Shown here one piece after another: positions 2,437 to 58,606 of a stretch of 64,000 nt of DNA. Numbering within the stretch: the stretch's first letter is position 1; each line of letters starts with the position of its first letter. The translations under genes and the position numbers were made by a program. The DNA lies in the NCBI GenBank assembly GCA_902793315.1, contig CADBCT010000002.1, positions 2,973 through 66,972 on the forward strand, given 5' to 3'. Source of the stretch: an uncultured Erysipelotrichaceae bacterium (lineage in GTDB: Bacteria > Bacillota_I > Bacilli_A > RF39 > UBA660). A model generated the notes under the pieces. That model was not told where the DNA came from, ran no database searches, and saw only the letters and a program-made list of their open reading frames with translations.

Positions 2437-2437
2437 T

Positions 2438-4604: not shown

Positions 4605-4650
4605 CTACATATGTAGTTTATCTTTACAAGTGTAGCTTAAGTGTAGCTTA
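4605..4650. promoter_or_regulatory. Candidate TetR operator(s) in the divergent MMPL/tetR intergenic region
   Basis: A perfect 12-bp palindrome CTACATATGTAG sits at 4605..4616. A tandem 11-bp direct repeat AGTGTAGCTTA x2 sits at 4629..4650. Together they give four CTACA/TGTAG half-sites within 46 bp. Confidence 0.4.
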
Positions 4651-4678
4651 TTATTATAAAATGTTTATAGGTGATTTT

Positions 4679-5263: not shown

Positions 5264-5287
5264 GAAAGTATACTTTCTTTTTTTTAT
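5262..5287 (+). terminator. Rho-independent terminator after tetR
   Basis: AAGAAAG-TATA-CTTTCTT followed by TTTTTTT. Confidence 0.7.
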
Positions 5288-5326
5288 TCAATATCTATGA
5301 TAAACTATATATAAGGTAGTGAGTTT

Positions 5327-6265: not shown

Positions 6266-6273
6266 TAGTACTT

Positions 6274-7728: not shown

Positions 7729-7777
7729 ATTTATCACCTACTATTATAAATATACAATAAAAATCAATTAAGATAAA

Positions 7778-7810
7778 TAAAAAAAACGTAAACAATCACT
7801 AGTTTACGTT
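7778..7810 (-). terminator. Rho-independent terminator after map
   Basis: AACGTAAAC / GTTTACGTT stem followed by a T-run on the minus strand. It overlaps the map stop codon. Confidence 0.75.
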
Positions 7811-8561: not shown

Positions 8562-8618
8562 CTAATACCTCCAAACCAAGGTAATTATACTATAAAAAAA
8601 AAGAAAATAAAAGTTCTT

Positions 8619-8774
8619 TTATTTTTCTATCATAATATCAGTCATATCCTTAGTAGATTTTAAACCAATATCTTTTATTTTCTTTAATTTCTCTGGATGT
8701 TTATTAAAATACATATATCCCATATAACCAAGTCCTGCCATAATAGCCATTACTTTCATAGACATCATTTTCAT
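8619..8774 (-). CDS. Small Met-rich membrane protein (51 aa)
   Basis: Own translation: MKMMSMKVMAIMAGLGYMGYMYFNKHPEKLKKIKDIGLKSTKDMTDIMIEK. SD GAGGTGA lies 4 nt upstream of the ATG at 8774. It is below the track length cut-off and fills an otherwise empty 250-nt gap. Confidence 0.4.
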   Translation of the reverse strand: MKMMSMKVMAIMAGLGYMGYMYFNKHPEKLKKIKDIGLKSTKDMTDIMIEK

Positions 8775-8809
8775 CTAATCACCTCTATCTATATTATGGG
8801 AAATAATTA

Positions 8810-10996: not shown

Positions 10997-11003
10997 ACTC
11001 CTC

Positions 11004-25984: not shown

Positions 25985-26752
25985 CTAAAGTAGTTTTATA
26001 AATTCTATTATAGTTGGAACATTTATACCTGTAAAGTAAATAAAAGTTAAACTAATTAATAAAAATGGTCCAAATGGAACTAAACGTTCATGTTTTTTTA
26101 ATAATAGAAATAATGATACTGGTAAAGCCAATAGACTTCCTAAAAAGATTGCCATTAAACCAAGTAAAGGATGAAGAATAATGCCAAAGACAAACATCAT
26201 CTTAATATCTCCTCCACCTAATGTTTCTTTTTTAAACATCATATTTCCTAGTAACATTATTGCATACATAATAGCAAATAATATTGCTCCTGATAAAATA
26301 CATAATAAAGCATTAACTGCTCCTACTTGTAAAGTTTTAATTATTATAAAATAACAACCAAAGAATACTAATACTTCATCAGGAATAACATAATAAGATA
26401 AATCAGATACTGATATAATTGATAACATTGAAACTATTCCTAAAGCAATTAATAGTTCATATGAAAAGCCATATACATAAAAACCTAAAGCAAATAATAC
26501 ACCTGTAAAAAACTCCATATATGATGATAAAGCATCTATTTTACCTTTACAATATCTGCATCTACCTCGTAGTAATAAGAAAGAAATTATTGGTACCATA
26601 TCAAGTAAACTTAGACGATGATGACATTTATCACAATAACTTCTAGAGTTCATAAAATTTTCATGATTAGGTAATCTTGAACCTACTACAGTAAAGAATG
26701 AACCCATTAATAAACCTAAAATAAAAAAGATAATTAGATATAAAGTTTGCAT
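25985..26752 (-). CDS. pilD: Prepilin peptidase (A24 family, PilD/ComC)
   Basis: Zn-finger CDKCHH...CRYC, catalytic Asp contexts SDLSYYVIPDE and GGGDIKMM, about 8 TM. Confidence 0.9.
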   Translation of the reverse strand: MQTLYLIIFFILGLLMGSFFTVVGSRLPNHENFMNSRSYCDKCHHRLSLLDMVPIISFLLLRGRCRYCKGKIDALSSYMEFFTGVLFALGFYVYGFSYELLIALGIVSMLSIISVSDLSYYVIPDEVLVFFGCYFIIIKTLQVGAVNALLCILSGAILFAIMYAIMLLGNMMFKKETLGGGDIKMMFVFGIILHPLLGLMAIFLGSLLALPVSLFLLLKKHERLVPFGPFLLISLTFIYFTGINVPTIIEFIKLL

Positions 26753-26768: not shown

Positions 26769-28196
26769 TTATTTAATCTGACTATACATAGAGAACATCG
26801 GTTGAATAATCGAAATTAAGATAATACCAACAACTACTGCTAAGAAAACGATCATAATCGGTTCTACTAAACTTTTCATCTGATCAATAACGTTTTTATG
26901 TAACATTTGGAAGTGTGAAGCAACCTTTTCCATCATAGCACCTAATTGACCAGTAGTTTCACCAGTAACAATCATTTCATATGCTACAACTGGTACTGCC
27001 CATTGTCCTCTAAATGCTGAAGATATAGAATCTCCACGACCTAAGTTTTCAAGAGTTTGATTAATAATCTTCGTAAAAACTTCATTATTAGTAATTTTAG
27101 ATAGAATTTCCATACTATCAGTAATAAATACTCCATGATTTAATAATGAAGCAAATGTTTTAGTAAAGTTAGCAACTTCATTGTAAATAATTACATCTTT
27201 AACTACTGGAAGATGCATTAACAAAATTTGTACTTTTTCTCTGAATGGTTGTACTTTTTTATATAATTGCATGAATGTAACAACTACTACCACTACACTG
27301 ATTAAGAGAATATACCATTTATTTTTAATAAAATCACTTGTAGCGATAATTGCTTTAGTTAATGCTGGTAACTCAGCTCCATTACTTTCAAACATAGCTG
27401 TAAATTGAGGAACCAAGTATGTAAGCATAAATATTAAAACTCCAAAGGCAATAGTCAATACGACTGCCGGATATGTCATGGCTGACTTCATTTGCTTACG
27501 AGTTTGATCCATTGAAGTATAATATTCAGACATATCATCTAAAATTGATGGCAAATCACCTGTCATTTCAGCTGTCTTTACCATATTTATTAATAATTTA
27601 GGGAATATCTTATCTTGCATCATCATGGCTTCAGATAAACTTTCACCTTTTAATAACTGATAAACTAATTCACTAAAGCTCTTTTTAAGCTTTGGTTTAG
27701 TTGATTGTTTGGCTAAAATTCTAACTGAATCAGCAAGTGGAATACCAGATTTGATATATGTAGATAACTGAGTTAATGAGAATGATAAATCACTGGCTCC
27801 TATTGGAGAATTCATTCCAATATCAATATCGCCTTTACCTCTTTTTCTAACTTCTAATACTTGATATTCTTGAGAAATTAAGAAATTTCTAACATCTTCT
27901 TCACTCTCAGCATCAAAACTACCAGTTTCTTTTTTACCTACACCATTTATAATTTTATACTTATAGCTCTCTAAAGGTCTTCTTATTTTAGTTCTTTCGC
28001 CCATTTGAGAAACTGTTTCTTGTGGCATAGCAGGTGTTTGATTATCAGCAGTTTGTACATTATTATCTTGAGCAGTTGCTACAGAATTGTCTTGGGTTGC
28101 CTGTTGTTGTGCTACTGCTGCAGTTGCATTTGCTGGTGCTGCTTGTTGTTGTGCTTCTGCTTCATTAGTTTTAGCTTTTTTCTTTTTTCCTAGCAT
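26769..28196 (-). CDS. pilC: Type IV pilus / T2SS platform protein (GspF/PilC/ComGB family) with a Q/A-rich N-terminal extension
   Basis: Two T2SSF repeats, each followed by a TM segment. The first ~60 aa are low complexity (AEAQQQAAPANATAAVAQQQATQDN...). Confidence 0.9.
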   Translation of the reverse strand: MLGKKKKAKTNEAEAQQQAAPANATAAVAQQQATQDNSVATAQDNNVQTADNQTPAMPQETVSQMGERTKIRRPLESYKYKIINGVGKKETGSFDAESEEDVRNFLISQEYQVLEVRKRGKGDIDIGMNSPIGASDLSFSLTQLSTYIKSGIPLADSVRILAKQSTKPKLKKSFSELVYQLLKGESLSEAMMMQDKIFPKLLINMVKTAEMTGDLPSILDDMSEYYTSMDQTRKQMKSAMTYPAVVLTIAFGVLIFMLTYLVPQFTAMFESNGAELPALTKAIIATSDFIKNKWYILLISVVVVVVTFMQLYKKVQPFREKVQILLMHLPVVKDVIIYNEVANFTKTFASLLNHGVFITDSMEILSKITNNEVFTKIINQTLENLGRGDSISSAFRGQWAVPVVAYEMIVTGETTGQLGAMMEKVASHFQMLHKNVIDQMKSLVEPIMIVFLAVVVGIILISIIQPMFSMYSQIK

Positions 28197-37862: not shown

Positions 37863-39458
37863 TCAAACTAGGTTTTTTTTATGAGTTTTTTCTAATGCTT
37901 TATCTAAGTTTTCTTTACTATAATCATGATTATAGAAATTCTTTAAGTTTTGTTTGTTTTCATAATATTTTTTACGAACACGATCTATTGCTTCTTCAAT
38001 AATACTATAACCAGCAAACTCATCATGGATTTCTGATAACAATCTTTCTAACTCTTCATCAGTAAGTGTATTCACAAATTTTCCCTTTGAAGTATCAAAT
38101 CTTTGATTTGAGCAAAGTGTAATATAAGCACCAATAATATTGCTTAACCAATAACCAACTAATTCATTAGTTTCAATATTATCTCTTATTTTTCTAATAT
38201 TATAAAATACAGTTATTTTTTTTAGTTCTTTATCAGCAGCTTGATATTCTTCTGGAGTTTTTTGAATATCTCTATTTTGCAACAATTCATATGAATCTAT
38301 TAGTTTTTTTATTTCTTCCATTGATAAGTAGTTATTCATTTCAGCAATAACTCCTTGAAAACCATCTTCTAGATATCCATTAAATACTTCTTCTTCATCA
38401 AACACTGCCATAACATAATCAGCAAATCCAATATTAATAGATGATAAAGATGGCATATCAGTAATTCTATGTCTTAAATTTTTACTTAAATCTTTATTTA
38501 ACATACTATTATTTAAATCTGTATTAGGCATATTTCTTAATTTTAATAGTAAATGAACATCTTCTAATCTATATCCTGGCAAGTTATTTTCTTTCGCATC
38601 AATAATCATTTTGTTTTCAAACATCGTTAGTATTATTTCTTCTACTCTTTTTTCCTCTTGTTTGATTCTTCTCATATCTTGTTTCATCTTATAAAAATCA
38701 TCTTTTTTTTCAAATGAATAATCCATATATTCTAACAAAACGTTTAATATATGATCAGTTAAATTAATTAATTCTTGAACGACTTCTTTAGGAGCATATT
38801 TATTTAACTCATCTATTAGTCCTTTGAAATCACTAGTTAGATACATTTTTTCCATTTTATCTTTTTCAATTAATCTTTCAACTTGTTCAGCAATAGTAAC
38901 TTGACTACTGTAAGAAGAAGATCCATGTTCTGGAAAATATCTTTTAGTTAAAAATTCAGTATAACCTTCATTAAGAGCTTTACCCATTCCTTTTTGAAAG
39001 AAACCTACATAACCCTCAGGATTAGTACTAGCCAAATGAAATAATTCATGATAAATTGAAGAATCATTTCTTAATACAATTTGATTTTTAGATGGCATGT
39101 ATACACCATCCGTATTCTTCATACTCTTTGTTATAAGATCAAAAAGTGTTCTATTATTAATTTTAATTTGTTTCATATTTAAATAATAATTCTGAAGATA
39201 TTCTTTATTAAAATTATTTTCTAAAACATCTTTAAATTCTTTTATTTGATTATAAAACTTAGATTTAGAAAATCTTTCTAGCGAGAAACTAGGATTAGCT
39301 AGTTGATATACTATTGGTTCTTCTATTATAGAAATATCCTTTATTTGACCCGTAACACTTTCTCTCTTTAATTTAAAACCATTTTGAATAGCTTTTTCCA
39401 AAAAATAAATAGTAAAAAAAACAGAGCCTGCTGTACCCCCAAAAATAAGTAATCCCAT
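37863..39458 (-). CDS. Membrane-anchored protein with gluzincin-like HExxH...NEGxTE motif
   Basis: N-terminal TM (GLLIFGGTAGSVFFTIYFL), then SSIYHELFHLAS followed 23 aa later by LNEGYTEF. The arrangement is thermolysin-like (HExxH + NExxSD style). The long helical C-terminal part is unknown. Confidence 0.5.
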   Translation of the reverse strand: MGLLIFGGTAGSVFFTIYFLEKAIQNGFKLKRESVTGQIKDISIIEEPIVYQLANPSFSLERFSKSKFYNQIKEFKDVLENNFNKEYLQNYYLNMKQIKINNRTLFDLITKSMKNTDGVYMPSKNQIVLRNDSSIYHELFHLASTNPEGYVGFFQKGMGKALNEGYTEFLTKRYFPEHGSSSYSSQVTIAEQVERLIEKDKMEKMYLTSDFKGLIDELNKYAPKEVVQELINLTDHILNVLLEYMDYSFEKKDDFYKMKQDMRRIKQEEKRVEEIILTMFENKMIIDAKENNLPGYRLEDVHLLLKLRNMPNTDLNNSMLNKDLSKNLRHRITDMPSLSSINIGFADYVMAVFDEEEVFNGYLEDGFQGVIAEMNNYLSMEEIKKLIDSYELLQNRDIQKTPEEYQAADKELKKITVFYNIRKIRDNIETNELVGYWLSNIIGAYITLCSNQRFDTSKGKFVNTLTDEELERLLSEIHDEFAGYSIIEEAIDRVRKKYYENKQNLKNFYNHDYSKENLDKALEKTHKKNLV

Positions 39459-43131: not shown

Positions 43132-44442
43132 CTACGCTGCCATTAAATTAGATACTTGAGGCTGAATTTCCTGACTTCTAGTTCTTCTAATTTTATCGAG
43201 ATAATCTTTAGTAACTGTCATAATTCTTACACCAGTTACAGTATTTTTATTATTTTCACTTTGTAATTCTTCTAACCTCTTTTGTGCTTTTTCTATTCTT
43301 TTACGATAACGAGAACCTTGTATATCATAGATTTTATCTTGAATACGATCAACTAATTTATCAGGATTTAGCATTGACCTTAATTCTTCATTTACAGCCA
43401 AACTATCTTCATTAGAAGATATTATTCCGGCTTGTTTTGAAGTTTTACTTCTACCTTTCATTTCATCCTTATATCCAGGCTGCATCATATGACCTTCTTG
43501 ACCAGTTAAGGACTTATCACTAATTTTTAATTCAATGTTCTTTGCTTGTAATTTTTTTAATAATTTTTTGTTTTCACGAAGATCTTTTCTACTAGTTAAT
43601 GTATTACGAATTCTTTTTAATTCAGCTATTTCTTGTTCATATTGATTAATTTGATCTACATTTTTACTGTGTTTAGCATCCATTTCCTCTAGTTTTCCCT
43701 CTACTTCAGCAGATAGTTTAGTTCTTCCTTGAGGATTATTAATTTGTTCTTTTAAGGCATTAATTTCAATTTCAAAACCTTTTATAGCTTCAGTAGTACG
43801 TCCAGTAAGATCATATTTTTCTCTTTTTCTTAATTTATCTAGCTTTTTATCTATTTTATTAATCCTATCCTGCATTATAGCAATATATTCATTATCTGAT
43901 CCTTTTAAAGGCTTCTTTTCTTCTACTGTTTTTCCTGATATACCACCAGCAGCTGCTACTTCTTTTTTCTTCTTTTCTTCTTCGGTTTCTTCAGCTTGAG
44001 GATTATTTTTACTAGCAGCTTTTTTATTTTCATTATCATCTTTTGTATCAGCATTTTCAGTTTTTTGAACACCATCTGACCCTTTAACAGCTTCTTCAAT
44101 AACTTCCTCACGTTCAGCTAGCATTTTATCTATACTTTTTATTCCCTTTTCACTAACTATACCATTTTCATTATCATATTTTAAATGTTCAAGAATTTCG
44201 TTCATATATTCATCATATATACCTTTATCGTATTCTGTATCACTCTTTAACTTTTCAACTTCTTTTAACAATTTTTCATAATTTTTAATAGCCTCATTCA
44301 TTGCATCAATATCAGATTTTAATACTTTGGCATCATAACTATTTGTGCTTTCCATCTGATCATATTGTTCCTGCATTTTATCACGCTTATCCTTTAAATT
44401 ATCAAGTAGCTTCTTAGCGTCAAACATCTTTACTTCTTCCAT
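43132..44442 (-). CDS. Hypothetical K/E-rich coiled-coil protein
   Basis: 436 aa with heptad-like charged sequence throughout. Its start overlaps the DUF1292 stop (TAATG). Confidence 0.5.
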   Translation of the reverse strand: MEEVKMFDAKKLLDNLKDKRDKMQEQYDQMESTNSYDAKVLKSDIDAMNEAIKNYEKLLKEVEKLKSDTEYDKGIYDEYMNEILEHLKYDNENGIVSEKGIKSIDKMLAEREEVIEEAVKGSDGVQKTENADTKDDNENKKAASKNNPQAEETEEEKKKKEVAAAGGISGKTVEEKKPLKGSDNEYIAIMQDRINKIDKKLDKLRKREKYDLTGRTTEAIKGFEIEINALKEQINNPQGRTKLSAEVEGKLEEMDAKHSKNVDQINQYEQEIAELKRIRNTLTSRKDLRENKKLLKKLQAKNIELKISDKSLTGQEGHMMQPGYKDEMKGRSKTSKQAGIISSNEDSLAVNEELRSMLNPDKLVDRIQDKIYDIQGSRYRKRIEKAQKRLEELQSENNKNTVTGVRIMTVTKDYLDKIRRTRSQEIQPQVSNLMAA

Positions 44443-45381: not shown

Positions 45382-45684
45382 TTATCCATTAATCTTAGTG
45401 ATTTTAATTTTAGTATAAGGTTGTCTATGTCCTTGTTTTTTACGGTTAGATCTATTCTTATTCTTATATTTGAAGATCTTAATCTTCTTATTCTTACCAT
45501 TCTTTAGAACTTCTCCTTGAACAGTAACATTAGTTAGATAAGGATTTCCAACTTTTGAATCAACCATTAATACTTGATCAAAATTTACTACATCACCTTC
45601 AGCACATTCTAATTTTTCAACAAAAATTTCTGAACCTTCAGTAACATAGTATTGCTTACCACCAACTTTAACTACAGCAGTCAT
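45382..45684 (-). CDS. rplU: 50S ribosomal protein L21
   Basis: MTAVVKVGGKQYYVTEGSEIFVEKL... with SD AAGGAGGT. Confidence 0.95.
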   Translation of the reverse strand: MTAVVKVGGKQYYVTEGSEIFVEKLECAEGDVVNFDQVLMVDSKVGNPYLTNVTVQGEVLKNGKNKKIKIFKYKNKNRSNRKKQGHRQPYTKIKITKING

Positions 45685-45777
45685 ATTTTACCTCCTTTTT
45701 TTAATACAAGACTCGCTCTTAAGGTACACATACGTGTTTTTACCTTTTCAATGCGGTTTGAGCATGAGGCGTCAAAC
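45685..45777 (-). ncRNA. Structured 5' leader of the rplU-prp-rpmA operon (candidate L21-leader type element)
   Basis: About 90 nt lie between the predicted promoter and the SD. They contain imperfect hairpins, for example GGTAAAAACACGTATGTGTACC. L21 leaders are known upstream of this operon in Firmicutes. The fold was not verified. Confidence 0.35.
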
Positions 45778-45783
45778 ATATAG

Positions 45784-45812
45784 ATTGTATCATGAACAAC
45801 CAATATTGTCAA
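45784..45812 (-). promoter_or_regulatory. Sigma-A promoter of the rplU operon
   Basis: Minus strand has TTGACA (45812..45807), a 17-nt spacer, then TACAAT (45789..45784). Confidence 0.7.
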
Positions 45813-45832
45813 TTTATTTATGTTATATCACA

Positions 45833-46960
45833 CTATTTAGTAGTGTTTTCAAGAATATATTTCATATAATCTGTACATTTACTATCATTTTCTTTATCAA
45901 TATCCATTTTTATTAAAGTCATACTTTCATTATCAGCATAGATATAATAATATATTTTCTTGTTTTCATCATAATGTACTTGATACTCAATATCATTATG
46001 AGTTTCTGATTTTAATTCAGTAAGTAATGGATATGATTTTTTCAAATACTCTAATCCTACTGATTGCATTGTTTTAATAGAATCTAAATGATTTTCTGTC
46101 GTTTTTACTATTGAAAAAGTACATACATTACTATCATCAGATACTTTAGCTAAACCTTCTATATAGTAATAATCTTCTTCTTGGTATTTTGCTTCACTAT
46201 AAGGTCTTTCTATGTCTTTAAAATCTTTTGGTATTGCAACCTTTAATCCAAAATCTTTGTCTGCTACAGCATCATTCTTTTTTTCAAAATTATATCCATT
46301 TATACTATATGATAATACGCCAATTAGAGCCAAGACAACAAATGCTTTTGGATCTACTCCACCCATTTGCATACATCTTTTCTTTTGTTCATTATAATCA
46401 TTAGTAGAAGCCATTATTTCTGCAACTGTTTTCTTACAATGCTCAAAATAATCTTTTTTAAATCTAGTTGCATAAATAACCGAAGCAATAAAATGAGCTA
46501 TACCTACTATTCCAATAAATAGTATGGAATTAAGATAAGTTGCAAATATAGTTAAAGCATTAAATATTAAGAAAAAAACTCCTTGTACATAGAATTTTCT
46601 ATATATTAAATAAACAGATGGAAAAAGAAGTGTTCCCCATGAAAAACCACCCTTCTCAAAGACCTGTAATTTATTACCTGTAAATAAATCCAATAGTTTT
46701 TCTTCTGGATTAATTACTTTTTCTTCTATTTCCACTTTTGTTGTAAGCATATTTTCATTTTCTAATGGATTGCCTTCCGGTCTAAGTGCTTTTGATTCGT
46801 CAGCAACAGTTCCTGTTTCTACCATATTATTCGCTGGTTTTGATGTTTCAACTACAGGTTCATTTAATACCTGCTGTGTTTCATTTTGTTGTGGTTTTTC
46901 TTTTTCACTAGTACCATATATATCTAACAAACTATTACTTTCATTTTTATTATCATTCAT
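45833..46960 (-). CDS. Hypothetical membrane protein (disordered N-terminus, DUF2628-like TM core, C-terminal ectodomain)
   Basis: Start is at the ATG at 46960 (SD AGAGGTG). GGFSWGTLLFPSVYLIYRKFYVQGVFFLIFNAL resembles DUF2628-type membrane segments. Confidence 0.5.
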   Translation of the reverse strand: MNDNKNESNSLLDIYGTSEKEKPQQNETQQVLNEPVVETSKPANNMVETGTVADESKALRPEGNPLENENMLTTKVEIEEKVINPEEKLLDLFTGNKLQVFEKGGFSWGTLLFPSVYLIYRKFYVQGVFFLIFNALTIFATYLNSILFIGIVGIAHFIASVIYATRFKKDYFEHCKKTVAEIMASTNDYNEQKKRCMQMGGVDPKAFVVLALIGVLSYSINGYNFEKKNDAVADKDFGLKVAIPKDFKDIERPYSEAKYQEEDYYYIEGLAKVSDDSNVCTFSIVKTTENHLDSIKTMQSVGLEYLKKSYPLLTELKSETHNDIEYQVHYDENKKIYYYIYADNESMTLIKMDIDKENDSKCTDYMKYILENTTK

Positions 46961-47030
46961 AAAAACACCTCTATTATAATATATCATATTTTAATCTAGA
47001 AAAAATAAAAAAAGTATCAATTGATACTTT

Positions 47031-48860
47031 TTATTTATGATATACACTGCCAGTTAATTCTTTAATAATACCATTATATTCATCAATACTTAAAGGCATT
47101 TCACTGAATAAAGCATTGTACATAGAATTTCCGTTTTCTAATAATCTATTAACTTTATTAATAGATACTAAATTACCATTAATATTATAAGTTCTTAAAC
47201 CATCACGATATTCATCTAAATTAATTGAATCTAAATCTACTTTATTATTCAATTCTACTTTATTAGGAATAAATTCCTCTAATTCTTCATCAGCTATATA
47301 AAATCTTTTAGTAAGTACTTTATCTAATTCATCTTTACTATCTATATGAGTTTCAAATGCTTTTAAAGCTTCTAATCTTAATAATTTATCACTATTAAGA
47401 ATATTTAAATCATTCTCTAAAAAACTCTCATAACCCAATTCAATTAATCTATCAATAATTAAAACCAAATTATTATTAGTTAAAAATTTATAATTACTAG
47501 TTGTTTTTAAAGAATTAAGTAAATTATAAGTATTTAGTATTTCTAAATTATCTTTTAATAAATTAGAATACATAAACATAATTCCAATTGATTCAAAGAA
47601 AATACTAGGATTAATATTATAACTATACAATACTTCTAAATTATTAGTATAAGCTTGATACTTAGAAGAATTTTTATAAAACAAATCATTATTTTTAATA
47701 ATAAATTCTAAACTCAAATAACCCTTATCAACAAATTCTTTGATTTGTAACACTTGTTTTAAATCACTATTTCTTAATACTTTAATTGTTTGATCAACAC
47801 TTAAATTAAACTTAGAAATAATTTTTAACATACTTTCTACATCTTCTAAGCTATTATTCATAATTCTTTCAATATCATGCAAACCATTAGTAATGCCATA
47901 ATCATGTAATAATGCTTGATATTTAAGTTTATTGTTCTTATTTAAATGTTGTAGTTCATTATTTAATTTTTCATAATACTTATTATTATGTTCATTAATT
48001 AATTCTAAAACAGCATATTTAATATTTAAATCTTTAATCTTACTAACTATTTCACGAGCATTAGTTACTTCATCAGTTGATAATCCTTTATCAAGTAATT
48101 CTAATGCAGTATCAATATTAAATAATTCTTTATTATTATTTCTAACAAATTGCTTTTCTTTTCTTTCTTCTTCATCAACAAATGTTCTTATTCTATTAAC
48201 ATCTTTAAAGAGTCTAGAAACATCATAATTGTCACGATAAACCTTTTTTAATAATAAACTCTTTTCTTTTTCCTTAAGTCTTAAATCATCTAGTTCGTTA
48301 GCAACATACTCTGCTTCACTTTTCATTGTTCGATATGCCATATAGGCAACTATTAATTGTAAGAAATTAGATTCTTGTTCTTTATAAAACTCAAAGTAAT
48401 TAGCCAAATCAATATCTTTACAGTTATCAACCTTTTTTATATCCTTGAGAATTTTAAAATATGATCTATCTTCTTCAATTAAACCAGATACACCAAGTGC
48501 TGCTTTAAAAATATTTTTTTCTTTTAAATAATTAATTATTTCATCAATGTTATCGGCAGCATCAATATTTATCGTCAATTGAATAAAGTCATGAAGATTG
48601 TCTATTTCACTAATTTCTAAAAAAAATCTAAATGATTCAAATCTATCATCTATTTCTTCAATACTCCATTTACTACCATTAAGATAGTATGCACATTTCA
48701 TGTATTCAAAAATATCAACATCAATAAAATCTTCTATTCTAGAAATATCATTATTTTCTAAATACTTTTTACAATAATCATAACGATAGTCTTTTTCATA
48801 TGGTCTAGTTAATTCTTCTTTTCTTATATCAACTAACTCAGTAATTCTTTCTCTAGTCAT
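47031..48860 (-). CDS. Hypothetical all-helical repeat protein (609 aa)
   Basis: Overlaps the upstream ORF by 8 nt, with SD AAGGTGA inside that gene. The C-terminal half shows about 30-35-aa helical repeats. The family is not recognised. Confidence 0.5.
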   Translation of the reverse strand: MTRERITELVDIRKEELTRPYEKDYRYDYCKKYLENNDISRIEDFIDVDIFEYMKCAYYLNGSKWSIEEIDDRFESFRFFLEISEIDNLHDFIQLTINIDAADNIDEIINYLKEKNIFKAALGVSGLIEEDRSYFKILKDIKKVDNCKDIDLANYFEFYKEQESNFLQLIVAYMAYRTMKSEAEYVANELDDLRLKEKEKSLLLKKVYRDNYDVSRLFKDVNRIRTFVDEEERKEKQFVRNNNKELFNIDTALELLDKGLSTDEVTNAREIVSKIKDLNIKYAVLELINEHNNKYYEKLNNELQHLNKNNKLKYQALLHDYGITNGLHDIERIMNNSLEDVESMLKIISKFNLSVDQTIKVLRNSDLKQVLQIKEFVDKGYLSLEFIIKNNDLFYKNSSKYQAYTNNLEVLYSYNINPSIFFESIGIMFMYSNLLKDNLEILNTYNLLNSLKTTSNYKFLTNNNLVLIIDRLIELGYESFLENDLNILNSDKLLRLEALKAFETHIDSKDELDKVLTKRFYIADEELEEFIPNKVELNNKVDLDSINLDEYRDGLRTYNINGNLVSINKVNRLLENGNSMYNALFSEMPLSIDEYNGIIKELTGSVYHK

Positions 48861-49806
48861 GATTATTCACCTTCTTTAATTCTACTTCAGCTTCTTTAGG
48901 ACTAATTAAGTTGAATAATTCTTCTACATATAAATCATTTAATTCCATAAATTCTTTATCTTTAATCTTTTCTTTTAATTTAGCTTCATTCTCTTTAAAA
49001 TGACTAACTTTTCTAGTTAAAGTATCTTTATATAATTTATCAGTATCAGTCTTTTTAACAAAGGCAGTAATCAAACCATATGTATTTTTATCTAACCTCG
49101 AAAATACTACTCTAGTTTTAAATCCTTTTACTTCTGAAATACCTGTTAAATGATAATTACTTGTAAAAGTTTTAACATTTTTAAAAGTACCATTAATAAT
49201 TGAATTAATTAACTCTAAGAAAGAATCATAATAGTCACTAGGAATATGTTCTAATTCATCAATTACACGAATATTACCGCTAATAGTAGGTATTAAGACA
49301 ATTCTATTTTTATGTTCTTGTACTTCTACTATTTCTTCTTTATTCATAAATTCTCTTATATATTTAATCTTTGTTTGTTCTTTGTTAATCAAATCTTTAC
49401 ATTCAATTAATTCTTCTTTAGATAAAGAATCATCTAATAAAAATTCATTAATTTCTTTTATTTCTTTATAAGATTCAGCTATTAAACGATTAATAATATC
49501 TTCGTAGTAATAATTATCTTTAGTGGGCAAAATATTAATAATATCTTCATAAGTAAAATTATCATCTAATGTTTTATAATTATCTAAATAAAATGATATT
49601 TCATCATTAAAATCATCATCTTCTAATACTATTTCTGATGATGCTACTAATTTTAAATCATTTGAATTATCAATACTTTCTTCAATAGTATCACTATGTA
49701 AATGTTTTTTTAGTCTTGATAGTTCTGATCTTTTTAAACGTGCTTCTTTACAACCTGATTCAATTACTTTAAGTAAATCATTAATATCTTTTTCCGTAAT
49801 AGCCAT
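48853..49806 (-). CDS. Hypothetical protein with a C-terminal RelE/Gp49(HigB)-like region
   Basis: ATG at 49806 has SD AGGGGTGA. The C-terminal GISEVKGFKTRVVFSRLDKNTYGLITAFVKKTDTDKLYKD resembles the (E)LR..yRi.f......i.l...F.KKt.k core of Gp49/HigB-type toxins. This is weak, by-eye evidence. Confidence 0.45.
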   Translation of the reverse strand: MAITEKDINDLLKVIESGCKEARLKRSELSRLKKHLHSDTIEESIDNSNDLKLVASSEIVLEDDDFNDEISFYLDNYKTLDDNFTYEDIINILPTKDNYYYEDIINRLIAESYKEIKEINEFLLDDSLSKEELIECKDLINKEQTKIKYIREFMNKEEIVEVQEHKNRIVLIPTISGNIRVIDELEHIPSDYYDSFLELINSIINGTFKNVKTFTSNYHLTGISEVKGFKTRVVFSRLDKNTYGLITAFVKKTDTDKLYKDTLTRKVSHFKENEAKLKEKIKDKEFMELNDLYVEELFNLISPKEAEVELKKVNNHD

Positions 49807-49830
49807 AATCTCACCCCTAAAACTGGACAT

Positions 49831-49884: not shown

Positions 49885-52800
49885 ACTTCACGATAATCTT
49901 CATCAATTATTGAATATAAATAACATTCTACTTTTTTATTAGTTTTATTTTCGATAAACTTACGATATCCATTAAGTTGAATATCATAATTCTCATCATC
50001 AATATTTTTTAACTTATAATCAATAATTATCATCTTATCAGCTTGTTCAACTAATAAATCAATAATTCCATGAGATAAAGTATTATCTTCATGATATAAG
50101 AATTCATATTCTTTATACATCTTAGACTTTAATTTATCTTTCATAAAGTCACTATTTACAAAAGAATTAATTTTATCTTTCATTGTATCAGTAATATCAT
50201 AATTACTTAAATCATAATTATTAAAATCTATTTCTTCTAATATTTCATGAACCTTAGTACCAAATTCTAATAATTCTTTTTCATGAGAATCAATTAGATG
50301 TAATTTATCTTTAGAATAATGTTTTTCTTCTATTTTATTACTTTCAATAGATAATTCAGTTACTACTAAATTATCATCAATATCAATTAATTCTTTATTA
50401 CTCTTTGTTACATCTAAATAATCTTTATTACCAATAATTTCTACTTCTTTTATAAATGGTAATAAGATACTATAAATACTTTTCATAATGCTTAAGAAGG
50501 AATTATATTTTTCTCTAATAGATAAAGATACTATACCATCTGTTAAACTTTCTTCCTCTTGCTTAGGCATTACTATAATCATCTTTTCTTTAGCTCTTGT
50601 TACTGCAACATAGAGTAATCTAATTCTTTCAGATATATCTTCTTTCTTTAAATTTTCTTTTAATAATAATTTTAAAATAGTATCTTTATAATACTTATCT
50701 ACCTTAGGTAAAATAAAACCATATTTATTATCAAACATAATTCTATCTTTTAACTCATCAGTATTAAAACGAGAATATAATCCAGCATAATAACAAACAG
50801 GAAACTCTAGTCCTTTTGATTTATGAATAGTCATTATTCTACAACTATTACTATTAATAGTATTTGTTGAGAAAGACAAATCATAATCATTATCAAATAA
50901 TTCATCTAAATATTCTACAAAGTCATAGATAGTATTACCTAACTGTTCATAACTACGACAAAGATTATAAAAGTATTCTAATCTAGTTCTAAATGATTTA
51001 ATATTACCAATAGTAATTAACTTCTCTTCATAATTTAATTCATCTATCAAATACAAGAAATAATTACTTAGATTCATATTATCAATGTCTTCTACTAATT
51101 CTAAACACTTCTTATATAAATCTGAATCTTTGAAATTATCATTTATAAAATAATTGTATATTTCATTATCACTAGTCTTCCACAAAAAGCTTCTAGAAAT
51201 AGACATAAAACTATATTTAAATTCATTATCTAATCTATTTTCTTTAATACAAATAAGTAATTTTAATAAATTTTTTAAAACTAGAGCGTCATTATCTTCT
51301 TTAAATGATTCATCTTTTAAAATACTTAATGGTATATTTAAATATTCAAATACTTTTTTAAATAAAGTAAAGTTCTTACTTTTATCTAAAAGTATTACAA
51401 AATCATTGTAATTAGCCTTACGTAGTTCTTTTGATTTTTTATCAAATACTTGATAATTACTATTAATTTTATTCTTAATATCATTACCTATTATAAAAGC
51501 TTCTTCTTCCTCTTTAGAAATTTCTCCTAAATTTTTATCATCATAAGTTAAAACTTCTAAATTATAGTCTTGTTCAGTTTTACCTTTTTCTATGTAATCA
51601 TTATTTCCAAAAACCATTTGATGACTATTCTTGTAGTCTGCTCCTCCTAGTTTGTCATCCATGAACAAGTCAAATAACATATTAATATTATTTAATACTT
51701 CTTCACGAGATCTAAAATTCTTTAATAAATCAATTTTTATTCCTAAATCAGAATTATTATTATAACTATCATACTTGTTTTTAAATATATATGGATTAGC
51801 ATTTCTAAAACGATAAATAGATTGTTTTATATCTCCTACCATATATACATTATTATGAGATATTAAACTTATAAATAATTCTTGAATATCAGAAGTATCT
51901 TGGTATTCATCTACTAATATTTCATTGAAACTATTAGATACTTCTTCTCTAATTCCAGGATAATCTTTAACTAGTTTAATAGCTAATCTACTAATATCTG
52001 AATAACCAAATATTTCTTTTTCTAATTTATAGTTTTCTAGTCTCTTATCAAATTCCTTTAGAATATTAACAATAACTTCTAGATTGTTTTTAGTACTTAA
52101 TAATTCTGCTTTCATCTCAGTAGTAGTTTCATAAATACATAAATTATTAATCTCTTCTACTAACTTATAAATACTATCTTTAATATTTTTACCTATAGGA
52201 TCACTCTTATTAGGAGTTCTAGGCTTTTCAATATTTAATCTAGCAAAGTCTTCATAAGTTTTAGCTTTTAATAAACTGCTTAAACTATCTTCTACTTTAA
52301 TAATAAAATCATTCTCAAAATAATTTACTAAGTCTTTCATTAATTCTTCTATATTTGTCTGTTTTTCTCTGATTAATTCTACATATTCATTAATAAAATT
52401 ATTTATTTTAGAATCAGTAAATTCATTTGATATATAATTTTCTAAGTAAGAAGATTTATCATATTTAAGTTCTAATTTCTTATAAGAATTTAATAAATAA
52501 GTACGTAGATCATTGTCATTTTTAAGACAAAAGTCATTAATTAAATTCATAAAATCTTTTTTAGGACTTAAATAATTCTCATTAAGTATTTGATCTAATA
52601 AATCTCTCTTAATCATATTAATAGTAGATTCTTCTGTAATATTAATCTTATTAGTAATATTTAATACTGTATGATATTTTTTTACTAAAGATAAAGAATA
52701 TGAATCAAAAGTAGTTATATATGCACTATCTAATAAATTAGCCTCTTCAATTAGACTATTATTATTCATTATCTCTTCTCTAATTCTATTCTTCATTTCT

Positions 52801-52979: not shown

Positions 52980-55267
52980 TACACATCACCTCCTAAAAAA
53001 GATAAATCATCTACTTTAGGATAATTAACTATATCACTATCATTCATATAGCAAATATCTTTGAATTTACAATACTCACAAGCCACATTCTTACCAGCAT
53101 AAGACTTAGGGTTAATAATAAAATTACTATTTAATATATCATCTAATTTAGTATTTATTTCATTCTTAGTATACTTAATTAATTTATATAAAGTATCATT
53201 ATCTATTACTTTAGAATAGCTACTAAATCCTTTATCAGTACTATATTTCATACTTTTAATATATTCACTATCTTTATAAGTTCTATCAAAACTTTCTAAA
53301 ATATCTAATTGATCAGTAGAATAACCATTTAAATAGTATTTTGTCTTTTCTTCTTTTTCTAATTTATTACTCCAAGTAGGATACTTAAATAAAATGTTTT
53401 GATAATATATTCCAGTGAATATTGGATTAGCAAATACTTTCCCATAATGAATTAAATACAAATAGACAGGTAACTGCATATGTAATCCATATTTCATTGG
53501 CTCTATATGGGTATCTATAGTACCAGTCTTATAATCTATTATTGAAAAGTATGTATCCTCAATATTTTTACGATACATTATTTTATCAATATAACCAATA
53601 AATTCTACACTTACTTTTTTATCTATTTTTACTTTTGCTTCTTGTTCATATAATTCATCATTATAAGTAGTATAGTCTTCTTGATCTTTTAAGACATTAA
53701 TAAATTCTAGTAATTCTTTTTTTATTCTTACTAGTAATAATTTTTCTTTTAAACTTAATTCTCTTGTTTCCAAATACTTATTGTATTCCTTTTCAAAATC
53801 AAAATTATATTTCTTATATAAAGATAGTATTTTATGGTACATTGAACCAATAAAAGCTTCAAAAGTATCTTCATAACTATCTACTTTTAAAACATATTTT
53901 AAATAGTATTTAAAAGCACATTCATTATAACTATTTAAAGATGTATATGACATTCTTAATGGTCTTATAATACTTCTTATATATAAATCATTATTAATAC
54001 CTGCAAATCCATTATTATAGGTATTATAGGGTATTTTATAATGGCTATTTAATAAGTCTAATAAATTATCTTTTTCATTATATAAGTTATATCTATCTAA
54101 CATCTCAGTTAAACGAATCTTATTATAAATATTAGAATACTGATAATTATCTTTTTCTTCTTTAATTACTTCTAAATCTAATTCTTTAATTAAACTAGAT
54201 GGAAAATATTCATTAAATGCAGATTCTAATTTATAAGATAAATATAAATTGGGTATTTTACTTAGTAAATATTTAATAATATCTTTTTCTCTATTATTCA
54301 AATACTTAGTAGAATACATATCTACTTCTTCTTTAATATTATCAGATATATAATCAATATCTTTTCTTACTTTAGGTAAGCTATCTTGATTAAATCCTAA
54401 GACAAAAACATATTCATCATCAAAAAATTCATTAGTAAATAAGTCTTTTATTTCTACTGCATTATTATACTTAATTGGTGGATAATAAGTATTTTTCAAT
54501 TTATCAATAAGTATCTTTTTATAAGTATCTGTGCTTTTATCTAAATCAGTTAAACTATTTATTACTGAGACTAGTTTCCTATTAGTTATTGAAGTATCTT
54601 CTATATTCAAAATACCTTCTAATAAATAATTATTAACTATTTTAGAACTATAAATAGAGTTTTTTAAATTTAAATTAATTGGTATTCTATAATAATTAAA
54701 TAGCTTTTTAATTGTATATAAGTATTCTTCACTAATATTAGTTAAATAAATCTTATTAATATCTACTCCGTTGTTTATTAAATCAATTATTTTTATACAG
54801 ATCCCATTAACTTCTTCTTCTAAAGTCTGATATTCAATTACTGGAACATTTATATTAGAATCTTTATAAGTAAATTTATAATTAAGTGCTTTTTCTTCAA
54901 ATAAATCCAAGTCATAATAACCTTTTACTTCGATATCAAAACTATCTAAATACTTTTTAAATGTAGGTGAATAACTTAATAGTTTATTGCTTATTAGATC
55001 AATTTTTATTTCTCTTAAATATTTTAATTTCTCATCTTTATAATCTTTATCTTCATTAATTACATATAAATTATTTAGGTATACTTTAACAACATCTACA
55101 TTTAAATTATATTTGTCCATTAAGTAGTAAAGAGCTTTATCATCATAACTAAAATAATACTTACTTAAGTATTCCCTTTTAGTCATATATTTGATATTAG
55201 TAAGTTCATTATTATTACCAAGTAATTGTAGTTTTGTATCATTAGGACAAATAATAAGTTTTTGCAT
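52979..55267 (-). CDS. addB: Helicase/nuclease subunit B (AddB/RexB type, no obvious Walker A)
   Basis: C-terminal nuclease FIGYIDKIMY...IIDYKTG. The Fe-S cluster cysteines (SYNECAFKYY and ACEYCKFKDIC) are typical of AddB. Its stop overlaps the addA start. Confidence 0.85.
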   Translation of the reverse strand: MQKLIICPNDTKLQLLGNNNELTNIKYMTKREYLSKYYFSYDDKALYYLMDKYNLNVDVVKVYLNNLYVINEDKDYKDEKLKYLREIKIDLISNKLLSYSPTFKKYLDSFDIEVKGYYDLDLFEEKALNYKFTYKDSNINVPVIEYQTLEEEVNGICIKIIDLINNGVDINKIYLTNISEEYLYTIKKLFNYYRIPINLNLKNSIYSSKIVNNYLLEGILNIEDTSITNRKLVSVINSLTDLDKSTDTYKKILIDKLKNTYYPPIKYNNAVEIKDLFTNEFFDDEYVFVLGFNQDSLPKVRKDIDYISDNIKEEVDMYSTKYLNNREKDIIKYLLSKIPNLYLSYKLESAFNEYFPSSLIKELDLEVIKEEKDNYQYSNIYNKIRLTEMLDRYNLYNEKDNLLDLLNSHYKIPYNTYNNGFAGINNDLYIRSIIRPLRMSYTSLNSYNECAFKYYLKYVLKVDSYEDTFEAFIGSMYHKILSLYKKYNFDFEKEYNKYLETRELSLKEKLLLVRIKKELLEFINVLKDQEDYTTYNDELYEQEAKVKIDKKVSVEFIGYIDKIMYRKNIEDTYFSIIDYKTGTIDTHIEPMKYGLHMQLPVYLYLIHYGKVFANPIFTGIYYQNILFKYPTWSNKLEKEEKTKYYLNGYSTDQLDILESFDRTYKDSEYIKSMKYSTDKGFSSYSKVIDNDTLYKLIKYTKNEINTKLDDILNSNFIINPKSYAGKNVACEYCKFKDICYMNDSDIVNYPKVDDLSFLGGDV

Positions 55268-55291: not shown

Positions 55292-55328
55292 TTAAAAAAA
55301 AGAAAAGGAATATTCCTTTTCTTTTATT
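55292..55328 (-). terminator. Strong rho-independent terminator after the pilin gene
   Basis: Near-perfect palindrome AAAAGAAAAGGAATATTCCTTTTCTTTT followed by a run of T on the minus strand. Confidence 0.85.
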
Positions 55329-55893
55329 TATATAATGTTCTTGATTTAGAAGTACATCCAGTACTTGATGCTCCCCAACCAGTCCAAGAAGAACCGCAGG
55401 AATATCCGCAACAGCCACCATCTGTACATGTTCTATTTCCACAACAAGACTTTGAGCATTGTTTTGGTGCTGCTTTATATTTACAAGTTCGACATCCACT
55501 ACACACATTATGCCATTTCCATTGTTTACATGAACCGCTATAATACGCAACATCGGCACAATATTTCTTCAATTCACATTTATCACCACATTTGGAACAA
55601 TTTGCTCTTGTTTCATAATACCAACCACAACAACCACCATCTCTACAAACTTTATAACCGCAACATGGTTTACTACATGTATTAGGAACATTTCTCTTAA
55701 TATATTTATATTGTTTGTATGCCGTTACTTTTACAGTACAAGTCATATAGTTATTAACATTATCATAAACAGTATACTTAACAGTATCTTTTACTCCGGT
55801 TTCTTTATGATCACTTCCACCAGGACAATTTTTAACTCCTGATCCACCATTATCACCACAAGTATACTTAATTGTTTCCACCATTATCACCAC
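55324..55893 (-). CDS. Cys-rich C-terminal continuation of the giant pilin gene, out of frame because of the 34-bp duplication (unlikely to be an independent gene)
   Basis: Track ORF of 189 aa with no SD before its ATG. Its first residues ETIKYTCGDNGG repeat the last residues of the upstream ORF. It contains 25 Cys, 22 of them in the last 117 aa. Confidence 0.7.
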   Translation of the reverse strand: MVIMVETIKYTCGDNGGSGVKNCPGGSDHKETGVKDTVKYTVYDNVNNYMTCTVKVTAYKQYKYIKRNVPNTCSKPCCGYKVCRDGGCCGWYYETRANCSKCGDKCELKKYCADVAYYSGSCKQWKWHNVCSGCRTCKYKAAPKQCSKSCCGNRTCTDGGCCGYSCGSSWTGWGASSTGCTSKSRTLYK

Positions 55894-55910
55894 AAGTATA
55901 CTTAATTGTT
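55843..55910. repeat. Perfect 34-bp tandem duplication (2 x TCCACCATTATCACCACAAGTATACTTAATTGTT)
   Basis: Read directly from the sequence. Copy 1 is 55843..55876 and copy 2 is 55877..55910, identical and head-to-tail. 34 is not a multiple of 3. Confidence 0.97.
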
Positions 55911-58549
55911 ACACCACTAGTTTCATTAAGATTACTTTTAGATCCACTACACGTTGGTTTTTGTTTATCAACATAAACATTCATTGATGTCCTTGAACAT
56001 TCAGCAACATCCGCACCGGCTGGTGAGTTATCAGCTTTGTCTATAACTGTATAACTATTCTTCTGAGTCATAACTTTATATGTATGCTCATCAGCAGTAT
56101 AAGCAACACTTGAAATAATACCATTTACACAGCCACTTCCACCAGTATCATTACATGTCTTTTTAACAGTAGTTCCTGACTTACGCCATGAAGTAGATTC
56201 ACCAGTAATAGTACAAGTTGGAGAATTATGATCTATTCTAACTGCATTAGCTTTTGAACAATCAGTGACATTACCCGCTTTATCGCGAACCTTACCACCA
56301 GAATTATTATCAATAGCTCCAGCATTATCAGTATTTATATTTACTTCATAATCATGATAGAAAGTTAATTTCCAAGTTGGTAAATCCTTTAAGCAACCAC
56401 TTGCTTTAGTAGAACCATCGGTATCATAGTTACCACTACTATCAGTAGTTCCATCTTCTTGACAATCCGCTTTAACTCTAGCAATTTCATTAATTCCTAA
56501 CCAACCATACGAACTTTGCAAGTCTGTATAGTTAGACCAACTAGATGAACTTGTTTTTCTAGCAAGTTTTGATATCTTACACACTGGTTTTGTAAAATCA
56601 ACCCAAATTGGTTTTAATCCAGTATAAGCAGTACAATTACCTGCTTTATCACAGTTTTTAAACTCTACTTTATTCTTTCCTTCATAAGTAGCGTTAAATT
56701 CAACTTTTCCTACATCACCATATTCATCTTTATTACTGTTATATTCTTGAACAACGTGATATACAAATTTATCCCAATCAGATAATGTTACTTTAGAAGG
56801 TCCAGATGTATTATCTCTTTTATAATCATCATTTACTTTTGCAGTAACAGTTTTATTAATCCAATGTGTCGTACCAGGAACATAATTCTTAGTTCCATCA
56901 TCAACATATGTATAAGAGATGTCTGATGGTAATGGAGGTGCACTCTTATCGATATTAGCTTCAATAAATAACTCTGTAGTATTATTAGCAGCATCCTTTA
57001 CTGTTAATCTTCCTCTTCTTCTACCTTCATCTTTAAAATGAATGTAAATTGTTTTCGTTAAAACACCACAGTTAGAGTTTTCAGGTGCTGCGATTGTTTC
57101 TGACTTTACCTCATCCTTGTTAGATGTAGTATATGTCTCATATCCAGAACCAGGAGCCGTTGAAGTAATATATGATCCATTAGTTTCCCATGACCAACTC
57201 GCTAAATGAAGACTATCAGAAATTTGAATTTTATATACAACACCATTTGGATACCTATTATTATTCATCCAATCTGATACTAAATTATTATAGGCATTAT
57301 AACTAAGTGTTCCCGTTTCTGCGTTATCTTTAACTTCCATACCAGCTGTATAAGTACTAGTCTCATCACTAACATCACCATCATTATCTGTGTCAGCAAT
57401 ATTACCGTTAGCATCAGCTCTATATGCTCCTAATACCTTTATAGTTGGTCTGTTTTTATCAACATTTACCCTGACACGACAAGGGTTTGAATTATTTACT
57501 TCAATGTCACATAAACTATTCCCAGTTATCTCTGAAGAAGTCGATGCAAGGTTACTATTACGTGCATTATCTGAAACTTGAATATAAGCCCACTCAGCAT
57601 CTTCTTGATCATCATTTGGCCAAGATCTTGCGAATGTTGGTCTTAAACAACCACTACCCTTACCATCATCACAAGTTACTGTAACAATTCTAGAAGCATT
57701 ACCTATTCCTATCCAATCATTGGCACCACTTGCCGCACCGTCTACACCTTTACATGTAGGAGGAATAGTATCTTGATACGTACTAGCAGTATTACTAGCA
57801 TCAAATGTCCTTGTACTAGTTCCACCTTCAACATTTATAACAGTAACTTCAACCGAGAAATTAGTAACATGAGCTACATCCATATAGTCAGAAAGCTTTC
57901 TAGCAACTGATATTTCATTATAACCATTTCCGCTTAAAGTACCAGAATTATATACTTCTTGCATATATTTATTTTCAGTTGTTTCCGCAGAAATTATATA
58001 ACTATATCCTTCAATAGCTATCTTTTCGCCATCTTTTTCTCCTCCGCTAAGTTCCATATAAATAACAGCTTTATTAACATTATTCATAACATCAAAAGAG
58101 GATGAATTAGCATCATCAGAGAAGTGTACTTGAATGATAGGAGTTACAGCATCCGCTTCAGTATATTCATCATCACCACATAAAATAATTGATTCATATT
58201 CATATTTGGTTTTTGATACTTTACGAACCATAACAAAACTATTGGTCATACAATCATCACCAGAAGAGTTCTTAATATCATCTTTTATGTAATTCTTATC
58301 TCTTAAAGTTTGAGCATATACTCTGGTTTTTCCACCAATATCTCGAGGCAATTTATCGGTATTAGATTGCATATAACTTTGTGCTGCTTGTTTCAATGTT
58401 CTAGCATACTGTTCATCACTTTCTTTATGAGCTCGATTTATTAATCTTGTAACACTCGCTATTGCAACGACACTTAGTACTCCTAACACCACAATAACAC
58501 CAAGCAATTCTATCATCGTAAATCCTTTTCTATTAGACTTATTTATCAT
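55868..58549 (-). CDS. Giant modular type IV pilin-like protein (893-aa frame, truncated by the duplication)
   Basis: Class III signal MINKSNRKG|FTMIELLGVIVVLGVLSVVAIASV (Gly-1, Phe+1, Glu+5). A pilin head with a Cys100/Cys124 pair is followed by repeated modules with PTC...TCxDxGxSGC and VxDxAxN strands. SD AAGGTGA. Confidence 0.8.
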   Translation of the reverse strand: MINKSNRKGFTMIELLGVIVVLGVLSVVAIASVTRLINRAHKESDEQYARTLKQAAQSYMQSNTDKLPRDIGGKTRVYAQTLRDKNYIKDDIKNSSGDDCMTNSFVMVRKVSKTKYEYESIILCGDDEYTEADAVTPIIQVHFSDDANSSSFDVMNNVNKAVIYMELSGGEKDGEKIAIEGYSYIISAETTENKYMQEVYNSGTLSGNGYNEISVARKLSDYMDVAHVTNFSVEVTVINVEGGTSTRTFDASNTASTYQDTIPPTCKGVDGAASGANDWIGIGNASRIVTVTCDDGKGSGCLRPTFARSWPNDDQEDAEWAYIQVSDNARNSNLASTSSEITGNSLCDIEVNNSNPCRVRVNVDKNRPTIKVLGAYRADANGNIADTDNDGDVSDETSTYTAGMEVKDNAETGTLSYNAYNNLVSDWMNNNRYPNGVVYKIQISDSLHLASWSWETNGSYITSTAPGSGYETYTTSNKDEVKSETIAAPENSNCGVLTKTIYIHFKDEGRRRGRLTVKDAANNTTELFIEANIDKSAPPLPSDISYTYVDDGTKNYVPGTTHWINKTVTAKVNDDYKRDNTSGPSKVTLSDWDKFVYHVVQEYNSNKDEYGDVGKVEFNATYEGKNKVEFKNCDKAGNCTAYTGLKPIWVDFTKPVCKISKLARKTSSSSWSNYTDLQSSYGWLGINEIARVKADCQEDGTTDSSGNYDTDGSTKASGCLKDLPTWKLTFYHDYEVNINTDNAGAIDNNSGGKVRDKAGNVTDCSKANAVRIDHNSPTCTITGESTSWRKSGTTVKKTCNDTGGSGCVNGIISSVAYTADEHTYKVMTQKNSYTVIDKADNSPAGADVAECSRTSMNVYVDKQKPTCSGSKSNLNETSGVTIKYTCGDNGGNN

Positions 58550-58577: not shown

Positions 58578-58606
58578 ATTTTATAATATTCGTTATTTTA
58601 TGTCAA
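58578..58606 (-). promoter_or_regulatory. Sigma-A promoter of the giant pilin gene
   Basis: Minus strand has TTGACA (58606..58601), a 17-nt spacer, then TAAAAT (58583..58578), downstream of a T-rich tract that follows rpmF. Confidence 0.65.

Follow-up and report, generated by a model that had tools for sequence, protein, structure and literature searches.

A 34-bp tandem duplication splits a modular pilin-like gene in an uncultured Erysipelotrichaceae bacterium: probably a recent, strain-private mutation

Introduction

On one contig of an uncultured Erysipelotrichaceae bacterium (GenBank assembly GCA_902793315.1, contig CADBCT010000002.1), two open reading frames (ORFs) meet in a perfect tandem duplication of 34 bp. 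The first begins like a type IV pilin and the second is rich in cysteine. The arrangement raises the question of what the duplication is: a reversible switch in a surface gene, a means of making a short and a long protein, a recent inactivating mutation, or an error of assembly. Here we describe the duplication, the gene in which it lies and the state of the same locus in other strains, and weigh these readings against each other. The analysis covers positions 2,973 to 66,972 of the contig, a stretch of 64,000 nucleotides (64 kb) that we call the window; all coordinates are those of the window.

The duplication and the reading frames

The 34-mer TCCACCATTATCACCACAAGTATACTTAATTGTT is present as two perfect head-to-tail copies at 55843..55910, without a mismatch; TRF reports period 34, 2.0 copies, 100% matches and a score of 136. 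The match between the copies extends 0 nt beyond the 34 nt on both sides, which leaves neither a partial third copy nor microhomology at the junction. From the GC content of 26%, the chance of a perfect 34-nt self-match is about (0.31)^34, roughly 4e-18 per position and period, which amounts to about 1e-10 expected occurrences for the whole window and periods 10-300. No other perfect tandem duplication in this range of periods was found in the 64 kb, and in the rest of the pilin gene TRF finds no tract except a trivial 15-nt hexamer run. The copies and the two ORFs are as follows.

55843..55876, minus strand: copy 1 of the 34-bp unit, distal in gene sense
55877..55910, minus strand: copy 2 of the 34-bp unit, proximal in gene sense and identical to copy 1
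55868..58549, minus strand: truncated 893-aa ORF, ending ...GVTIKYTCGDNGGNN, stop at 55868-55870
55324..55893, minus strand: downstream 189-aa ORF, starting MVIMVETIKYTCGDNGGSGVKNC...

Either copy can equally be regarded as the insertion. The two-copy allele reads ...CTTAATTGTT/TCCACCATT... at the junction, or TTAATTGTT/TCCACCATT in short form, where the one-copy allele goes from ...TTAATTGTT straight to ACACCACT. In the ancestral frame copy 1 corresponds to T881-G891 (TIKYTCGDNGG) plus 1 nt. Since 34 = 3n+1, the frame shifts and translation terminates two codons into the second copy to be read, after ...GDNGG-NN; the stop of the 893-aa frame thus falls inside copy 1. The 893-aa ORF starts with a class III signal peptide and the pilin module, continues through most of a chain of beta-sandwich domains and closes with the two out-of-frame residues (NN). 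The 189-aa ORF re-reads the duplicated peptide in the other frame and holds the rest of the ancestral gene, namely the second half of the last beta-sandwich and a Cys-rich tail, with no signal peptide of its own. The source record calls a 186-aa version of it, from a GTG start at 55884.

When one copy is deleted in silico, a single frame of 3,192 nt and 1,063 aa results, with one stop at its end. The first-pass annotation had proposed the two mismatch-free copies, the split into 893-aa and 189-aa frames with a stop at 55868, and the restored 1,063-aa ORF, and every one of its numbers is borne out.

The unit contains a 10-nt palindrome (AAGTATACTT), and a 13-nt inverted repeat, 85% complementary, spans one border of the duplication. 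These were the only candidates for a slippage-promoting structure at the site, and they make weak evidence for one. A stretch 90 nt away (55753..55786) is 68% similar to the 34-mer and encodes TVKYTVYDNVNN in place of TIKYTCGDNGG. This is an old similarity between paired strands of the last beta-sandwich, separate from the recent duplication.

The product of the intact gene

The intact gene can be laid out as follows.

58578..58606, minus strand: promoter-like site TTGACA-17-TAAAAT, an 11/12 consensus match only, upstream of the ATG at 58549
58463..58549, minus strand: class III (prepilin) signal peptide and hydrophobic alpha1-N helix, MINKSNRKG/FTMIELLGVIVVLGVLSVVA (G-1, F+1, E+5)
58175..58549, minus strand: approximate pilin module (aa 1-125), from the AF2 model and a sub-threshold GspG-like match
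55684..55987, minus strand: last beta-sandwich domain (aa 855-944), AF2 strands E855-861 to E932-944
55327..55683, minus strand: Cys-rich tail (aa 945-1063); 22 of its 119 residues are Cys
55298..55325, minus strand: terminator-like hairpin (12-bp stem, then a T-run), immediately behind the stop codon of the intact frame

The leader MINKSNRKG/FTMIELL (MINKSNRKG/FTMIELLGVIVVLGVL) has the class III form of type IV pilins. Pfam N_methyl, the sole Pfam match of the protein, scores 25.8 bits at aa 5-29 (cut-off 21.2), and NCBIfam TIGR02532 (prepilin-type cleavage/methylation) 21.9 (cut-off 16.3). The similarity continues below threshold over aa 8-121, to GspG-like proteins (E 2e-7, but 31 bits where the family cut-off is 88.85) and to ComG pilins in NCBIfam. 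The gene had been called a pilin gene beforehand, and the signal peptide upholds this as far as pilin-like.

The AlphaFold2 (AF2) model of the intact protein, built on 15 sequences, has a mean pLDDT of 75.5. In the pilin module it places a long alpha1 helix (aa 28-62) and a small beta-sheet with strands within 74-121, at a pLDDT of about 70-85. An unbroken chain of beta-sandwich domains follows up to aa 944; the Cys-rich stretch at aa 957-1019 is of low confidence, and a C-terminal hairpin at aa 1038-1062 is confident. The sandwich modules have the motifs 'C-x-D-xx-GSG' and 'D-x-A-x-N' in common, and some homologs give Pfam Big_13 or Big_3_2 matches. A fold search with the whole model returned generic multi-Ig or multi-domain beta-sandwich proteins only, with a TM of at most 0.16, and was uninformative as to function.

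Raynaud et al. (2021; PMC8179133) define a modular pilin as a pilin module joined to one or more structural modules that are not specific to pilus biology, and expect such pilins, among them PilB and PilC of Streptococcus sanguinis, to be exposed at the filament tip. With about 940 aa of consecutive predicted beta-sandwich domains after its pilin module, the modelled protein would have this architecture.

The duplication interrupts the last beta-sandwich after its third strand. The unit encodes aa 881-891 and therefore lies within that module, covering C886 and D888 of the module motif C886-x-D888-xx-GSG; C886, D888 and G893 are invariant in an alignment of 14 homologs. The truncated product accordingly ends after the third strand and lacks 170 residues, the whole tail included.

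The Cys-rich tail and the question of two forms

The Cys-rich C-terminal domain noted from the sequence alone is a real module, conserved in the family yet hypervariable. Its core (about 55426..55683) varies and its C-terminus (55327..55425) is conserved as CCGYxCGSxWTxWGASSTGCxSxSRxLYK. A search with the tail against 1.84 billion representative proteins gave matches only at the C-termini of the same family. The exception was the start of the query, where some 55 residues are part of the beta-sandwich and match repeats in other large proteins. Between strains, 55386..55683 (aa ~945-1043) behaves as a hypervariable cassette on a backbone otherwise 98-99% identical. One related contig (L005) differs from the window at 38 positions in about 320 nt of it, with a dS of 0.24 and a dN of 0.13, where dS elsewhere is 0.045. 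In a 1075-aa class of alleles (L001/P0001 and several members of the protein's cluster), about 300 nt of DNA cannot be aligned, and the sequences rejoin at the conserved C-terminal motif. Such variation suggests allelic exchange of a cassette, or balancing selection on the tail.

The two ORFs could, in principle, be programmed short and long forms, the 893-aa protein being a functional isoform and the tail being made separately from internal GTG or ATG starts or by ribosomal frameshifting. The duplication does contain candidate starts for the downstream ORF (GTG 55893, ATG 55887 and GTG 55884) with a weak GGTGA motif before them, and the truncated protein, as modelled, would keep all that is needed for export and polymerisation. 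However, the protein is cut off midway through a beta-sandwich, away from any domain border, the detached downstream ORF has no means of export, and the overlap of the ORFs holds no canonical slippery heptamer. The family gives no precedent either: the aligned homologs are all single ORFs, nearly all of those inspected have the tail, and none is a tail-less short form that ends here. Even homologs of roughly 900 aa, which might have been natural tail-less isoforms, mostly retain it, ending in a motif like ...R-x-LY(K/Y), and a tail-less form is therefore no natural variant of the family. Programmed forms are, in our judgement, very improbable.

The ancestral state and the population

The first-pass annotation had asked for orthologous loci to be compared. 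The 34-bp unit is single in all 11 public loci that cover the site (8 samples), and identical in sequence to that of the window. A protein search brought up 39 homologs, about 800-1,090 aa long and each a single ORF (39/39). The repaired reading ...TIKYTCGDNGGSGVKNCPGG... is the state in every homolog; the alignment of 14 runs through the repaired junction ...SGVTIKYTCGDNGGSGVKNCPGGSDHKETGVK... without a gap, and the closest relative has the identical sequence there. The very gene that deletion predicts is present on a metagenome contig of 49 kb (L017, from ERZ27280377): it equals the window gene minus one copy over 3192/3192 nt, with no mismatch in the whole gene beyond the extra copy. This contig and another (L016, from ERZ28614149) are collinear with the window over 12.3 kb without an indel, and L017 differs from it there by 9 SNPs.

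The wider record agrees. The protein falls in a 90% identity cluster of 32 members, whose full-length forms (1063, 1074 or 1075 aa) occur on 80 contigs or more, one of them a 1.07-Mb contig labelled 'MAG: Bacilli bacterium'. The 893-aa and 186-aa products (P0054/P0056) are on record from one NCBI/ENA contig of 99,126 bp only, presumably the source of the window. A 26-mer across the junction is absent from the GTDB contigs (one genome per species) and from the JGI metagenome contigs. Among the intact alleles dN/dS is 0.03-0.17 over aa 1-945, and the intact gene is therefore functional in the population and kept by purifying selection. The one-copy state is thus the intact, ancestral gene, and the two ORFs are one frameshifted gene and should be annotated as such, not as two proteins.

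These data bear directly on a switch. In one version of this idea, phase variation by duplication, of the kind found in pneumococcal capsule genes, would toggle the display of the Cys-rich tip, for example under pressure from phage or antibodies. The anatomy is that of the OFF state of cap3A, cap8E or tts, in that a perfect tandem duplication lies within the ORF and its precise loss gives the wild type. The protein is a surface filament subunit, and a hypervariable tail with two deeply divergent classes of alleles fits a module under diversifying pressure. The two-copy allele was probably also the majority in its sample, since the assembler put it out. The population speaks otherwise: just 1 of about 81 contigs has the disrupted allele, the 11 loci show no second disrupted allele and no other duplication or indel in the gene, and the orthologs have neither a repeat tract at the site nor microhomology that might predispose it. 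Where there is no homology, the creation of one particular 34-bp duplication should be rare, which counts further against recurrent switching. We consider phase variation improbable here. A broader proposal is more doubtful still: that this uncultured lineage of gut Bacilli, with its small genome, may toggle display of the Cys-rich, hypervariable tip of its giant modular pilin through spontaneous and precisely revertible tandem duplications. If true, it would place cap3A-style phase variation on a type IV filament adhesin, with the tip as the target of selection by phage or host antibodies. To our knowledge, variation of this style has been documented so far essentially for pneumococcal capsule genes.

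A reversible ON/OFF or short-versus-long switch, which the first-pass annotation had put forward, is thus not supported, and nothing indicates that the locus was built or is used as one. Of its suggestions, the two that best account for the evidence are an inactivating mutation of recent date and an assembly artefact.

Mutation or artefact

An assembly artefact would mean that the source population has one copy only and that the extra 34 bp came from a contig-end join, from gap closing or from a misresolved bubble of strain variation. That the two-copy allele is seen on a single 99-kb contig, in a gene otherwise base-for-base identical to that of L017, is what such an error would leave, and the lack of microhomology at the borders points the same way. 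Metagenome contigs of this species often end inside the pilin gene beside the hypervariable tail (L008, L010 and L012). The duplication is about 130-200 nt from that stretch, L008 ending at window position 55712, and the setting is thus one that can provoke errors of assembly or gap closing.

The details of the site fit an artefact less well. The duplication is the sole one of its kind in a window without N, and the collinearity with L016 and L017 is unbroken by indels. Its borders (55843 and 55910) lie some 31 nt away from the nearest SNPs of the population (55812 and 55942), which a k-1 overlap join at a branch of the assembly graph should abut; an artefact of that type is not supported. As far as we know, 34 matches neither k nor k-1 in the default k-mer sets of common metagenome assemblers, and we have counted this against an artefact. 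A chimeric join at the duplication was considered because BLAST hinted at unequal identity on its two sides. Per-base mapping resolved the difference into patches of SNPs elsewhere (e.g., in addB), and the chimera was rejected. Against a further contig (L002: 16.4 kb at 99.2% identity), base-level mapping gives 0 mismatches from 55313 to 56102. With no mismatch in these ~790 bp around the site, or in the gene against L017, there is no signature of a chimeric join. On balance we regard an artefact as unlikely, though it deserves to be kept in mind.

We therefore favour a very recent, strain-private and spontaneous 34-bp tandem duplication in a conserved and normally intact gene for a 1,063-aa modular pilin-like protein, and give this reading a probability of about 0.6. 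The two-copy variant was probably real in the sequenced population. The mutation presumably arose by slippage: an error of replication slippage or template switching would be its most likely origin, and it should be noted that borders with zero microhomology are less typical of simple slippage, which counts against the explanation that we prefer. The frameshift and early stop would leave at most a prepilin of 893 aa that keeps the signal peptide, the pilin module and most of the beta-sandwiches, ends midway through the last of these and has lost the Cys-rich tail. Such a product could in principle still be processed and polymerised, and is probably impaired; the 3' remainder, having no export signal, is effectively dead. 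Precise collapse to one copy would be possible in principle, as for any perfect tandem duplication. A single observation fits a neutral or deleterious accident and a selected loss of the tail alike.

Genomic context

Processing of a class III signal peptide requires a prepilin peptidase, and the window encodes one, next to a second filament gene, 28 kb from the pilin gene.

25985..26752, minus strand: prepilin peptidase (A24_N_bact and Peptidase_A24 domains)
26769..28196, minus strand: PilC/GspF-type platform protein, 475 aa (two T2SSF domains)

The pair is flanked by a DnaB_2-domain gene and tgt. No assembly ATPase (T2SSE) was matched among the 30 largest ORFs of the window, and no other ORF of the window has a prepilin motif. 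As neither a T2SSE ATPase gene nor a pilin gene stands beside the peptidase/T2SSF pair, the genes for type IV filaments appear to be scattered in this small genome.

In more distant relatives, giant N_methyl homologs form tandem arrays: L018 has three at 1055..11195 (1036, 1003 and 1064 aa) and L019 two at 3276..11042 (1397 and 1013 aa), in the coordinates of those loci. Between some members are proteins of ~160-165 aa without a convincing Pfam match (at most one faint). Sample labels suggest that both metagenomes are of ruminant gut origin.

The SNPs that separate the window from near-identical strains are strongly clustered (51837..51870, 54000..55000 and 45500..46000); L016 differs at 9 positions within 34 nt of addA, for instance, and L002 at 26 per 500 bp in the 5' part of addB. 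The pattern resembles that of short recombination tracts, not of clock-like divergence. In another assembly of the same species (L004/L009, ERZ27280754 k141_1503546, locus coordinates 6456..8744) the pilin gene is intact and the neighbouring addB is split into ORFs of 505 and 199 aa. This too is either a private disruption or an error of assembly, and it concerns another gene.

Pfam gives no match at E <= 1e-5 for several large ORFs of 325-609 aa (757..2436, 6274..7737, 14807..16636, 37863..39458, 43132..44442 and 45833..49830). Three consecutive ones downstream of addA (384, 609 and 325 aa) are conserved in related contigs. Rfam finds no family at gathering score in the whole 64 kb (no tRNA, rRNA, riboswitch or ribosomal-protein leader), despite the presence of the rplU-prp and rpmF loci.

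Significance and comparison with known systems

The duplication itself holds little new biology. If real, it amounts to a natural knock-out that removes the tail module from a large, uncharacterised pilin-like surface protein. Another sample has a wild-type allele that is isogenic at the locus (the 9 SNPs noted above, over 12.3 kb), and pairing the two could help to assign a function to the tail once the bacterium or its protein becomes open to study. The gene family is more noteworthy: its members are modular pilins of 1,000 aa whose Cys-rich tail is hypervariable, and in related taxa they often form tandem arrays.

Among systems in which surface genes are turned off and on, simple sequence repeat (SSR) contingency loci have a conserved tract of many short units (1-7 nt) in all strains, such as the poly-G tract of Neisseria pilC and the tetranucleotides of Haemophilus. 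The present gene resembles them in that a change in repeat copy number shifts the frame of a pilus or surface gene. In contrast, its wild type contains the 34-nt unit once, and none of the 11 loci shows a tract; the gene is therefore not a locus of this class.

The pneumococcal capsule genes cap3A, cap8E/wchA and tts are closer. The reports cited describe spontaneous tandem duplications that turn these genes off and whose precise loss turns them on (Waite 2001, 2003, as summarised in PMC11163986 and PMC4022640). The likeness extends to a perfect duplication of tens of bp within the ORF of a gene for a surface structure, and to precise excision, which here too gives the wild-type gene, that of L017. 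In pneumococcus, however, duplications are many and recurrent and reversion is measurable, whereas here a single allele is on a single contig, without independent recurrence in 11 loci or about 80 contigs (one truncated product against the full-length ones). By this population standard the allele does not qualify as phase variation. In Staphylococcus aureus agr, duplication mutants may or may not revert (PMC6686034). Ordinary pseudogenisation by a short duplication, as found in MAGs and isolates, is alike in every other respect (a private frameshift, no further decay, intact relatives), and the sole distinction is that a perfect duplication is precisely revertible in principle.

As to the protein, it resembles modular type IV pilins such as S. 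sanguinis PilB and PilC in having a pilin module with extra modules (PMC8179133), and differs from those treated there in three ways. At 1,063 aa it exceeds the most extreme case cited, of 860 aa. Its added modules bear no Pfam signature, and a family-specific Cys-rich tail stands at the end. Finally, its gene is alone between rpmF and addB, outside any pilus operon.
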